From positions 1 through 64,000 of the forward strand of contig NW_026929500.1 in assembly GCF_032062105.1 (NCBI RefSeq): a DNA stretch of 64,000 bases. Reading direction: 5' to 3'. Shown piece after piece: positions 29,941-35,300 of this stretch; position 1 is the stretch's first letter; every line of letters begins with the position of its first letter. The stretch comes from Saccostrea cucullata. Its lineage: Eukaryota. The translations under genes were made by a program, and so were the position numbers. The notes below the pieces were generated by a model. It was not told the origin of the DNA. It saw only the letters and a list, made by a program, of their open reading frames with translations, and searched no databases.

Positions 29941-30589
29941 CCCTTTGTGGTCCCATTCTCAGATGATCATCATGGATTTGAAAAACAAACCTGAACTATA
30001 ATTACATGTAATAGTTTAAGTTTTCTTTTTTCAACTCTTTTGACCTTGGGAATCCTTTTTCTTTATAAATGTATTTCTACATAAATAATGTATTTCTACA
30101 TTAATTTTGATTGTCCTGCCCGGTCCAATAGGTCATGTTTTAAATAAATGTTTCTACACTTGGTAATAAAGCCTTCCATAATTAAGTTTCAACTCTCCTG
30201 TCACAGTGGTTCTTGGAATTGTTATACATGTATTAATGCAATATGAAAGATCAAGCATTATTACATGGGTTACTTTCACTTTTGCATAGGTTTTACCATA
30301 TCAAGCTAAAAGCAATATCCAATAAACACGTAAAGAGATATGTTTGACATGTTCAATGTTAACCTTAAAAAGATTATAGGCACCATGAGTTAGCCAAGGT
30401 GTCTCTTTCTAACGATGCTCAAGCCTCAAGGAGGTTTCCCTGAAAGATAAAAGCACAGATATTATCATAAACTTCAATGATCAAAAAAGCACTCAAAACA
30501 CTTATGCACACCATATATACACTCTCCTTTAATTCATTCTGCACAATACAACATAAAAGCAAAAATCACACTTCATCTGTGTCCATACA

Positions 30590-30890
30590 TCACTGAATCC
30601 ATTCCAGATCACTCAAGATTCAGTCTGCTCCAGATCATTCATAATTCCATTCCAGATCACACATCACATGATTTTCTTTTCAAAATCAAATCATATTCCG
30701 TATCACTCATGATTCTGTTCCAAATTGCTCAAGATTCCATTCCAAATCACCCATGATTCAATCTATTCTGGATCACTCATGACTCAATTCCAGATCACTC
30801 ATGATTCAGTCTATTCCAGATCACTCATGATTCAAACTGTTCCAGATCACGCATGATTCAATCAATTCCATTCATCATGTTCAATCATGA
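30590..30890 (-). repeat. 22/26-nt tandem minisatellite in the TARDBP 3' region
   Basis: About a dozen units of core ATTCCAGATCACTCATGATTC (plus strand), i.e. GAAUCAUGAGUGAUCUGGAAU on the TARDBP-sense strand. Confidence 0.85.
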
Positions 30891-32329
30891 TTAAATTTTT
30901 TCACCAATTTTATCAGAACACATTTCAGTCCAACATTAGATCTTCCAAGTTCTACTCATTTTAGTCTACCCAACAATCCATTTTCATAATGAATGGTCAC
31001 AAACTGTTATTAAATAGCCGTACATATTGATGAATTACAATTTTCAAAAATCTGTTTAGAAGTGTAAATACAATATCAGCATCAGGAAAAATTAAGGAAC
31101 CTCTATACACTGATGAAAAGCGTTTTATGAACTAGAAAAAATTATATAGCCAAATTTTTTTTTTAGAAATTAGCTTAGCATTTCTAATACAGGTCGTGTG
31201 CTTTTTTTATCCTGGAAAAATCTTCATTAAAGTAATGATAAGGAAAAATCGCCTACTAAAATTGAAAAGATACATGTAAATGGAGTTTTAAGCTACTCAT
31301 CTTGGTATAATTTAATGTTTAAAATGCTGACATTTTTTTTTCAAATTATGACACACATGTGCAGCTTACAGTTTAATATATTTTATGTCAAATGGGTCAG
31401 TATAACCACATAAAAGTACCCTGGTATTAGTACTAGTATTAAGTGTAGAGAGGGTCCTTGAGGTGAAATTTAAAAGGAAAGAAAATTTTAGACATCTGCT
31501 AGTGGGTTGTTAGTCCTTAAGGTGAAATTGTAAAAAGTAAGAAAATTTTAGACATCTGCTAGTGGGTTGTTAGGTAAAATATAGGAAAGCTACTTTTCAT
31601 AATACATAGAATTTTACACAAAAGGGAATGCTGAAAAATACATGTAGGTGATTACATTGATTAACAATTTCTGCAAATCCACACTTAATATTTTATGTAC
31701 ATATACATATTCAGATTTCATAAGCAACACAAAAAACAAACTTGGAACCAAGTTCCCATATTAAAAATCTGATGTATCTTACTTTTAAACTTTGAAGCAT
31801 TAAACAAAACAAAGTGCTTTGCACTAATTTCTCCTATGACACACTCTATGGAGAAGGGAAACAACCTCTTTAAATATTGAAGTTAACATTCCTACTATAT
31901 ATCAATGTGTTAATAACAGCATGAACAGTGTAAAGTAATATCTCTGAAAAAAACCTGTTGTTTAAACCTGTGGTGCAATATAACAAAAGGAATTATCAAT
32001 ATACATTTATTATTTAGGAAAAAGCAAAGTTCTAGAGACTTCTAAAGTGACTTTATAAGTATTTAAATTCTAGGGGTGGGATGATACAATATACATGCAT
32101 ATCCCATTTTAATGGCTACAATAGACATATACCACACTTTTCGTTTAGCATTTCAATAAAAGACTGATTCTTAGGATTTTTTTTCAATATTATAAAGTAA
32201 TGTTCTAAAAAAAAAAAAATGTCTTCCCACATCATTTCAGCCCTTATAGACACAAGGCATAGCACTCTGCATAGTAAAAAAAAATCAACACCACACTGAC
32301 GCACACCCATCAACATATCCTCCCATACA

Positions 32330-35300
32330 TTAACTCCAACCACTCTGGTGGCTGTTGCCTCCCCAGTTGGGATATCCGCCTGCGGATGTATTGGTGTCAG
32401 TTGTCCCCCAGCCTGCAGAGTTCTGGGTACTGAAGAACCCCGTCTGCTGGGTCTGTCTGGCAGTTGTGGTTTGAACACCAAAAGGATCCCCATGACCTTG
32501 ACCCACTGGCTGTGGTTGGGGTGCAGGTAACTGACCTTGACTTTGTAACATAGCCTGGGCTGCTGCTAACACAGCTGAATTCAATAAATTCATGCCTATG
32601 CTATTGGCCATGTTTGGGTCAGGAACAGGTGGAACTGTACCTACAGTAGCGATAGGTTTACCTTGCTGGCTCCACCCCCCATGCCCCCCTCCCCTCCCAC
32701 TTCCTCCATGATCAAACCTGCCTCGGTTATCGTTTCTGTCGGAATTTTTGGGAGCTGCGGTGGTGACGTGAACACTTGCCCCCTTGATAATATGGTCCTC
32801 CCCACAAAGAGAACGAGCCACCCTGTGATCTGCAAAAGTAACAAAAGCAAAGGCTCGGAAGGGTTTGGGAATGAAAACATCGGACACCTCCCCATATTTA
32901 CAAAAGTAACTTTTCAGGTCATCTGCTGTGATGTCTTCAGTGCATCTGGCTACAAAAACTTTTCTGCTGACCATTTCTGCAGCACCTTCCTGTATGAAAG
33001 GAAAAATAAGATCAAATAACTATCATGAATAAATAATATGTATGCATATAAAAAAATTATTTAGTTTGTAATTATACTTTAACAAAGCATATTTGTAAAA
33101 TTTCATTTACCATCTAGGCACATCATAAGAGCAATCAAAGTAAAACATTTTTGGGACTCTGTAGAATGCCAATAGGCAATTTTCAATCAAAATGACATCT
33201 TTTAATTTCTGAAGTTTTCATTGCTTCAAGAATCAAGACTGAGAAAATGATTTTATAATTTGATGAATAAATATAAAACAAACCATTCCATCAAAAAAGT
33301 ACTTGCATTTGAGTTTGGAATGGCTACATCACACCATCTGCCATCAATCATGTGTCTTTGTGCCAACACCTTTACTTGTGAATCATACTCTAAAAATCGA
33401 ATAAAGCCAAACCCTTTTGATGCTCCTGTTTTCACATCTCTCTTCACCTAAAGAATAGAACAAGACATTACACAAAATTTACCTTTATGATAGAACACGT
33501 CATTTATTACATAAAATTTTCATAAAACCAAAATGTCCAAAGTATGTCCAAGATTTTGAAGCTGAATTCATTGCTTACACAGCAATGGCCAGAATCTTTT
33601 TTACTCATAATATTATAGGATTTTTGTATTATATCTATAAACTTACTTGTACAAGAAGCAGTTCTCCAAAGGAAGAGAAGTATCTGCGCAGATCATCTTC
33701 ATTACTTTTCCAAGGTAAGCCCAGAACAATGAGATCACTGCATCGCTGTTTATCAACACACTTATTCTTCGCCAATGAATTTTCACCAGCCTCATCTCCT
33801 TTGCGTTTTATCATCACATTATCTGCAAGTATATGTTATACAACTTAATTCATTAAACAGGGTTCGACATTAACGTTAGTCCGTTAGTCTCAGACTAATA
33901 CATTTTCATTCGGACTAATAAAATTTGTAGCTAATTAGTCCGGACGGACTAATAAAGTTTTCTGGGGGAAAAAAGAATTTACCGATGTTCAAATATTCTC
34001 GACAACTTTCACTGGAAAACCCCATATTTATTTTTAGCTTTCTAGCTTCTTGGCGGGGAAGTTCGGTAATTCTGAGTCAATTTGGGGCTTAATTTTAGGA
34101 CTCATTGGTATGAAATTAAACATTTTATCGATCATGAGTTAGTATGACACATAAAGAAAGATGTTGGATGTATGGATGATATAATCATGTATAGAGAAAA
34201 ATGAATGAGATCGGAAATACGATCGTAGTTCCTGATTTCGCGATTTCAACGAATTTTGGTATAAACAATTCATGTAGATGCTTTGTTTATTTCAGAAAAG
34301 TATAAAAAGTACATTGCAACATTAATTCTATTTATCTACTTATATTTTTGATGGAGTCATAAAATTGTCCGCGGACTAGTAAAAGAAAAGAAGCACTAGT
34401 CCGGTCGGACCAAAGCCTAAAAACATTAGTGTCGAACCCTGTTAAAAATGACTGAGTATTACCACGTCAATTGCTCTAAAATTAAATAGCCCCTGATTAC
34501 ATGTGATTTTTTTTATTAGGGGGTGAAAAAAATTGCACATATAAAAAAAAAAGGATCATAAAATAATAAATCATAAAAGAGGGCATTGCTACATGGAGCA
34601 TCCTCTCGCAAATAGCATTTGACATCCATCCTGATGCAAATTAAGTCACTTCCGTTTTGCACAAAAGACAGACTAACTCGCTCACACACATTTACTATAC
34701 TTCCCCAGAGTTTCCGAAAACCAAATATTTCTATGAGTCATTCGGACTGGTGACTCAATGCGTTCTACCAGTCTGAAGCATATTCTATCAGTCCAAATAA
34801 ATTTTAGAAAATTGTGTATATTTTATGTCCGATGTAATTCAAAAGAAAATGGCACTGAATATGTAAAAATTTTCATGGCTCACCATCACTGATTGTGATA
34901 CCAGGGTCACCATCACTGATTGTGATACCAGGGTTATGCAACTATATATATTAAATAATTCAAAACCATGGCACCAGCTCAAACAGGCTTGTGGCAGCAA
35001 AAAAAAGTTGCTAGCTCCAAGTAAATGTTGGGGGAACAACTACATGTAATTATGAAAAAAAAAATTAATTCTTGAAAAAGAAAATTTCTGAAGGTTACTA
35101 GAATTCTTTTTAAATTTAAATATTAATTCTAACTTGTAAAATGGAATCATATATAAACAGCAGTAATTATGATAGAAATTTAAAATAAAAATAAATTTAA
35201 AATATCTTCACATTTTCTCAATGGGCACTTCATGGCCTATATACTGCACGTGTTAACCATTAATAGAGGAATGGAGGAAATTCGGATAAGGAAAAAAACG

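Follow-up and report, generated by a model that had tools for sequence, protein, structure and literature searches.

Our analysis of positions 1 to 64,000 (forward strand) of contig NW_026929500.1 in the genome assembly of the oyster Saccostrea cucullata (GCF_032062105.1; we call this whole 64,000-nucleotide stretch the window, and all positions are counted from its first letter) shows a minus-strand gene of the TDP-43 family whose 3' end holds, in order, a UG-rich tract, a polyadenylation (poly(A)) signal and a strong candidate splice acceptor. An initial annotation had proposed that donors inside the last coding exon are joined to this acceptor, giving short proteins analogous to the short TDP-43 isoforms of vertebrates. 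We tentatively favor a different emphasis, in which the full-length protein is the default product and the 3' end may act as a self-limiting switch of the vertebrate style, with short forms as minor or conditional products.

The TDP-43-like gene and its product

The gene and its transcripts were examined with four of 24 listed RNA runs, two raw oligo-dT runs and two runs of assembled contigs (X2 and X8). All were taken from a close relative, most of the reads being 90-99% alike, and are effectively unstranded; their tissues are unstated. The features of the coding region are as follows (a slash within a motif marks the splice point).

35944..36181, minus strand: coding exon 1 (ATG; TDP-43 N-terminal domain), from Pfam and from junction 33822/35944 in all four runs
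33647..33822, minus strand: coding exon 2, from RNA junctions
33307..33447, minus strand: coding exon 3 (RRM1), from RNA junctions
32990..33306, minus strand: intron 3, GC-AG (AAT/GCAAGT), from joint 32988/33306 with 1-base slack (14 and 13 reads, and contigs in both contig runs)
32330..32989, minus strand: last coding exon (RRM2, low-complexity tail, stop), from unbroken contigs across 32430-32988 in X2 and X8
32546..32569, minus strand: codons of the segment LAAAQAML, from conservation and alignment with the human segment

Each of the three constitutive junctions is crossed by 11-23 reads in both raw runs and is present in the contigs of two more runs. The Saccostrea X1 isoforms in the database differ at residues 186-187 alone, which fits intron 3 displaced by 4 nt so as to read GT-AG; this alternative joint is absent from the best 15 of 42 RNA joints, and the reads give GC-AG.

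The joined exons encode a 404-residue protein with no differences from the Saccostrea cucullata TDP-43-like isoform X2 (XP_062619470.1). Pfam finds PF18694 (E=2.7e-33) and two stretches of PF00076, that is, the TDP-43 N-terminal domain and two RNA recognition motifs (RRMs), and gives no match to TDP-43_C (PF20910) at E<=0.001. Human TDP-43 matches it over residues 1-403 (E=9.6e-124), and identity to mammalian TDP-43 is 66% over 276 residues. The ribonucleoprotein (RNP) phenylalanine motifs of both RRMs (GFGF and AFAF), which are used for UG binding, are identical to those of the mammalian protein, and the LAAAQAML segment aligns with human MAAAQAAL and is kept in orthologues. Judged by its sequence, the oyster gene belongs to the TDP-43 family. 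In a tree of 42 rows, which is unrooted because the four of 46 rows dropped from it include all three vertebrates, the protein clusters with oyster, mussel, scallop and ark-shell orthologues (99/97), and both a second oyster paralogue and an octopus/nemertean/beetle group lie apart from this cluster.

Candidate donors in the last coding exon

32675..32698, minus strand: G-quadruplex-type pattern of G-runs directly 5' of donor 1, from a pattern match
32656..32664, minus strand: candidate donor 1 (exon end 32662, phase 1), predicted from sequence
32530..32538, minus strand: candidate donor 2 (exon end 32536, phase 1; highest donor-like score in the region), predicted from sequence

The two donors that the initial annotation placed in the Gly-rich tail, AAG/GTAAAC at 32662 and AAG/GTCAGT at 32536, are indeed present on the minus strand and are both in phase 1, and its predicted ends hold as well: joined to an exon starting at 30439 (introns of 2222 and 2096 nt, respectively) they would give proteins of 298 and 340 residues, each ending in G-K-P-P-stop. 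Because the LAAAQAML codons (32569-32546) sit between the two, donor 1 would remove this helix segment and donor 2 would keep it, as had been claimed. A donor of the type used for sTDP43, the short isoform of human and mouse, would lie in the last coding exon upstream of the helix; 32662 lies upstream of the oyster helix and 32536 downstream. By matrix score these are the two top donor-like sites in 32989-29300 and the best-scoring partners for the 30439 acceptor; the donor matrix values are approximate, and all splice scores used here are home-made. The count of MAG/GT, made post hoc, is high at five, which is reached in 64 of 10,000 shuffles.

The annotation had also pointed out that the unspliced continuation of donor 1 nearly copies the start of the distal exon. 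The near copy exists, and in the window as a whole it is unremarkable (three occurrences of the 10-mer with at most one mismatch against 4.61 expected); in the 2.2 kb interval about 0.08 would be expected, scaled from the window, so that it is a mild coincidence. The idea that a conserved G-K marks a conserved phase-1 donor is weakened by clam-type orthologues, which have K-P without the Gly.

Three further observations concern this exon. A third CAAG/GT, overlooked by the initial annotation, lies at 32497 on the minus strand, and its joining to 30439 would give 353 residues. All three Gln-Gly pairs of the tail are encoded CAA GGT. The G-run at 32698-32675 (minus strand) is made of GGG/GGA glycine codons and ends 13 nt before donor 1; five molecules end at 32668 in run X23, where the raw depth dips in the same bin, and the G-run presumably causes a reverse-transcription stop near this point. 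We considered the dip (32524-32764) as a sign of donor 1 use and rejected it, since the depth recovers in the next bin and the contigs are flat, which a stop at the G-run fits better.

The 3' region and the candidate acceptor

Downstream of the stop codon lie the following features, in the direction of transcription.

32006..32011, minus strand: proximal AATAAA, presumably used, as X8 contig depth is near zero below ~31774
31777..31785, minus strand: donor-like site within the untranslated region at the 3' end (3' UTR; AAA/GTAAGA, exon end 31783), predicted from sequence, a rival partner for 30439
30451..31000, minus strand: UG-rich tract, partly a 22-26 nt tandem repeat, a candidate TDP-43 binding region, from TG density, shuffles and oligo-dT reads
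30528..30533, minus strand: distal ATTAAA with GU/U-rich sequence after it; coverage by reads drops across the 30355-30595 bin
30440..30470, minus strand: candidate acceptor (exon start 30439), with its AG and a strong pyrimidine tract, from sequence and score
30426..30439, minus strand: start of the candidate distal exon, giving G-K-P-P-stop from a phase-1 donor, from sequence

The acceptor, TTTTATCTTTCAG/G with exon start 30439, is present on the minus strand as annotated. It scores 8.97 by a simple measure, a rough guide since the gene's three real acceptors score -2.05, 6.87 and 10.06; the next best site in 32330-29500 scores 4.63. In 128 kb of strand just seven sites reach this score, of which at least two are evidently real acceptors, and a site this good falls within 200 nt of a given point with about 1% chance by the same score. 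By a plain count of pyrimidines 30439 looks like one of many acceptors and by the fuller score it ranks first, both measures being crude. It lies about 90 nt downstream of the ATTAAA, at the end of the densest UG tract in the 64 kb. The acceptor is the notable part of the observation: it appears unusually strong, and it is sited as the end of a TDP-43-controlled intron would be.

The initial annotation missed the 550 UG-dense nucleotides ahead of this acceptor. Among 2554 windows of 200 nt on either strand, the tract contains the one richest in TG (34 against a mean of 13.3), and its TG count is 87 against 48 in shuffles of its own composition; the 140 nt outside the repeat are also enriched (23 against 14.9, P=0.0015). 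GAATG and TGAGTG are about 10 and 60 times above background, counts that are inflated because tandem repeat makes up much of it. The end of the tract may resemble the human CLIP34nt site, a likeness on which the argument does not draw. No unusual RNA fold was found in the tract (z=-0.28, 20 shuffles), and there is no Rfam match in 29000-37000. The tract is transcribed, as oligo-dT reads cover the 30451-31000 region and the unspliced 3' UTR is covered to ~30500; the long 3' UTR likely ends near 30510, the cleavage site being placed by read depth. We discarded a candidate "exon 7" (31845-31783), whose acceptor scores 3.6 and within which a 2-nt insertion segregates in the related species.

Related loci and proteins

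Oysters are absent from the 80 loci obtained by a metagenome scan, and the Q-G-K-P motif occurs in none of them. Among the animal TDP-43 loci that we fetched, those with at least 1.4 kb on both sides number 14, many of them close kin and not independent, and in 13 of these the TG density peaks higher after the stop than upstream of the last exon. A test of sense against antisense TG gives 45 of 47 loci, which is weak evidence, as it had no 3' UTR control and many of the loci are related. One clade comprises 24 loci, and 16 of them (16 of the 18 with flanks longer than 1 kb) keep a perfect donor immediately ahead of a TG-rich tract; this donor follows a conserved acceptor-like block at a distance of about 75-85 nt. 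The loci with this order of block, donor and tract, found 600-1700 nt past the stop, are L034, L041-L043, L049, L050, L052, L054, L056, L059, L067-L069, L076, L078 and L079. Their layout resembles human exon 7 and intron 7, which suggests that the design may be widespread.

Tail replacement is seen in gene models of several molluscs. For the second oyster paralogue (B) of Magallana gigas and Crassostrea virginica, models exit the tail at the same point into a similar short end, and one model exits near the terminus into this same end (P0270, P0091, P0271); among P0270, P0271, P0272 and P0091 two switch points share one end. Patella, Aplysia, Littorina and Pomacea have tail-swapped models alongside full-length ones. 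In all, sister-paralogue models of six mollusc species have the tail replaced part-way through the last exon (for example XP_078311171.1, XP_050396066.1 and XP_005095338.1), swaps that probably arise from internal donors. As in the predicted isoforms, the swapped models share their sequence with a full-length sibling and then switch within the tail; they differ in being gene models only and in belonging to other paralogue groups, none being listed for the orthologue group of the 404-residue protein. Paralogue B is a better-supported case of the idea put forward in the initial annotation.

Some other records depart from the usual tail. L010 and L015 are near-identical snail-type TDP-43 sequences whose tails change frame just before the helix, as does a Physella X2 model. 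P0007, an unnamed 120-residue record 96% like RRM2, lacks the part of the tail between the Gly run and the vicinity of the VQTT motif and may be a deletion, a gene copy or an assembly artefact. Three unnamed mussel-type records (P0031, P0267, P0268) end early or differently and may be assembly ends.

Comparison with known systems

Human TDP-43 inhibits the poly(A) signal pA1 inside intron 7, and the extended transcript then presents the intron-7 acceptor (PMC4937342, PMC3950720). The human TDP-43 binding region (TDPBR), of about 600 nt (PMC3643599), and pA1 lie in the silent intron 7 (PMC3950720); TDP-43 targets motifs of the UGAAUG type as well as long multivalent tracts (PMC8445024). With TDP-43 in excess, intron 6 is then cut from coding-exon donors, giving short forms sensitive to nonsense-mediated decay (NMD) (PMC4937342, PMC11848802, PMC12987623, PMC4509932). 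In most human cells the short isoforms are rare (PMC12987623), so low read counts would be expected in the oyster.

Like human TARDBP, the oyster gene has a UG-rich tract (~550 nt) with a poly(A) signal and then a normally silent candidate acceptor. It differs in that its tract is partly tandem repeat, its signal is ATTAAA, a proximal AATAAA lies upstream, and there is no strong UTR donor beside the tract; binding and feedback are in the oyster predictions only. Human and mouse sTDP43 share with the predicted oyster forms several donors that lie 3' of RRM2 in the last coding exon, an acceptor farther along in the 3' region, and loss of the low-complexity domain with retention of the N-terminal domain and RRMs. 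On the other hand, the new tail of sTDP43 has 13-20 residues against four predicted in the oyster, donor 2 would, unlike sTDP43, retain the conserved helix, and the oyster acceptor follows the UG tract and poly(A) signal, whereas that of sTDP43 lies upstream of the intron holding the binding region. By position, 30439 corresponds to the human intron-7 acceptor rather than to that of sTDP43. In addition, sTDP43 is an NMD target, whereas no oyster donor-like site scoring >=0.5 is predicted between 30439 and 29991; with the new stop probably falling in the last exon, no junction-dependent NMD is expected. The zebrafish pair tardbp and tardbpl also arose by duplication, as oysters have more than one paralogue, and there too the last coding segment is removable by splicing with UG motifs nearby. 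The duplications are independent, and wild-type zebrafish embryos make a short form of 33 kDa from tardbpl (PMC3658164), whereas the oyster RNA shows the full-length form.

A possible switch and its alternatives

We propose, at a probability of about 0.45, that this gene makes the full-length protein by default and that its 3' end is a vertebrate-style self-limiting switch, short forms being minor or conditional. The gene structure, the unspliced last exon, the transcribed long 3' UTR and the order of tract, poly(A) signal and acceptor are direct observations. From the unspliced exon the 404-residue protein would be made. The steps beyond this are modelled on human TARDBP: excess TDP-43 would bind the UG-rich tract and suppress the poly(A) signal at 30533, suppression would expose the 30439 acceptor, and this would pair with the best upstream donors, 32536 and 32662, to give minor short forms ending in G-K-P-P. 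In this scheme, unlike that of human sTDP43, a single splice would take out the tail along with the tract and the two poly(A) signals.

A number of results weigh against such splicing. The RNA-seq comparison proposed for the 32662 to 30439 and 32536 to 30439 junctions showed the last exon unspliced and placed no joint touching 32662, 32536 or 30439 among the best 15 of 42 joints in the four runs. The 27 weaker joints may carry up to ~27 summed reads (judged from the weakest one listed), so the raw reads do not exclude the predicted junctions. In X2 and X8 one contig each spans 32430-32988 unbroken, across both donors, and the bin with both donors has a contig depth (457, against 464.6, and 141.5) equal to the constitutive exons; because contigs lose rare variants, only major use of the donors is ruled out by these. 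Neither X2 nor X8 has a contig in the acceptor bin 30355-30595, and depth below 30354 is explained by a 33-nt repeat, leaving a residual of ~0.07 and 0.4 in 30114-30354. GKPP occurs in none of 316 fetched proteins, and the eight named members of the oyster cluster among the 40 examined of 68 keep the full tail. One of the gene's real acceptors scores below zero, and tandem repeat makes up much of the tract. Between 30439 and 29500 there is no AATAAA or ATTAAA, only variants; with no good donor after the new stop, the product may therefore be poorly processed rather than degraded by NMD.

Much of this would be expected if the arrangement were a coincidence, in which the donors come from CAA-GGT codons, the acceptor is a chance T-rich stretch past the poly(A) site, and the gene makes only the full-length protein with two 3' UTR lengths. 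When synonymous codons are shuffled, 1.8-2.6 donors as good as the two observed arise on average (P(>=2)=0.57-0.77), so that, taken by themselves, the donors do not exceed what chance yields in a Gln/Gly-rich exon; the count of near copies in the window is likewise at chance. The unbroken contigs, the lack of a listed junction or of coverage past 30354 and the lack of a GKPP protein agree with it, as does the retention of G-K-P at the protein level in most orthologues, clam-type ones keeping K-P without the Gly that the donor requires. What makes this account somewhat unlikely is that the acceptor is among the seven best in 128 kb of strand and comes directly after a poly(A) signal and the window's densest UG tract; moreover, sister paralogues have tail swaps, and the junction count rests on the best 15 of 42 joints. 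If instead the acceptor is real and pairs with a donor in the 3' UTR (31783 or 30512), as in human intron 7, the mRNA would be destabilized or retained and the tail unchanged. The position past tract and poly(A) signal fits intron 7, the related clade keeps a UTR donor right ahead of its tract, and 31783 reads AAA/GTAAGA; this is nonetheless distinctly unlikely, as 31783 and 30512 score 2.4, below the coding donors (4.5 and 3.1), 31783 is ~800 nt from the tract, and no such joint is among the best 15 of 42.

It is very improbable that some tissue or stage makes the short forms as a major product, in the manner of zebrafish Tardbpl, or that the intron-3 donor uses 30439 as the start of an alternative last exon (191 residues, no RRM2). 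The wild-type zebrafish form described in PMC3658164, the short paralogue B models in two oyster species and the unstated tissues of the RNA runs leave room for this, but raw depth is no lower 3' of the donors (25.0 and 21.0, compared with 22.8 and 22.7), contigs are unbroken in two further studies, and among the best 120 of 413 matches of 120-384 residues no near-identical short protein of the gene's own cluster appears except the 120-residue P0007. The switch with a full-length default is the reading that we retain. Of the analogy with vertebrate short isoforms proposed by the initial annotation, the family membership, the strong and well-placed acceptor and the tail swaps of sister paralogues stand in its favor; the absence of a listed junction and of GKPP, the chance-level donors and the inexactness of the analogy do not. 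As for the short isoforms, they are plausible but unproven, and they are not major products.

Other features of the window

Beside the gene lie coding pieces that, from their peptides, are probably an APRT-like open reading frame (44898-45224, minus strand), a NEDD8-like last exon (40367 onward, plus strand) and coiled-coil exons (50572-53147, plus strand). Two coding-like duplicated segments, 5245-11099 and 17102-20353 (plus strand), are 70-94% alike, which suggests a tandem gene pair. There are also three copies of an internally repetitive element (5936-6750, 23952-25702 and 60141-61591) and an inverted repeat pair of 174 nt and 95% identity (28007-28851).

Implications

Short isoforms of TDP-43 and feedback through the 3' UTR hold a central place in the biology of amyotrophic lateral sclerosis as well as frontotemporal dementia (ALS/FTD) and have been described from mammals and zebrafish. 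We found no mollusc study of either in the literature searched, which held few subscription papers, nor in the available part of the review PMC10530927. Vertebrates already provide both the mechanism and the class of isoform, and databases already contain mollusc models with swapped tails; what the oyster adds is a prediction, well placed though lacking evidence from junctions, that a known mechanism operates in a new animal. An unlikely but more far-reaching version is that control by UG tract, poly(A) signal and silent intron is as old as the bilaterians and that this oyster paralogue fused the intron-6 and intron-7 steps into one NMD-escaping splice, yielding stable proteins of 298 and 340 residues. 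If that were true, the helix-less 298-residue and helix-keeping 340-residue proteins would be a natural pair for testing the role of the helix in condensation and feedback. If the oyster cassette works, the feedback design would be ancient or repeatedly evolved, and molluscs would offer natural variants with and without the helix.

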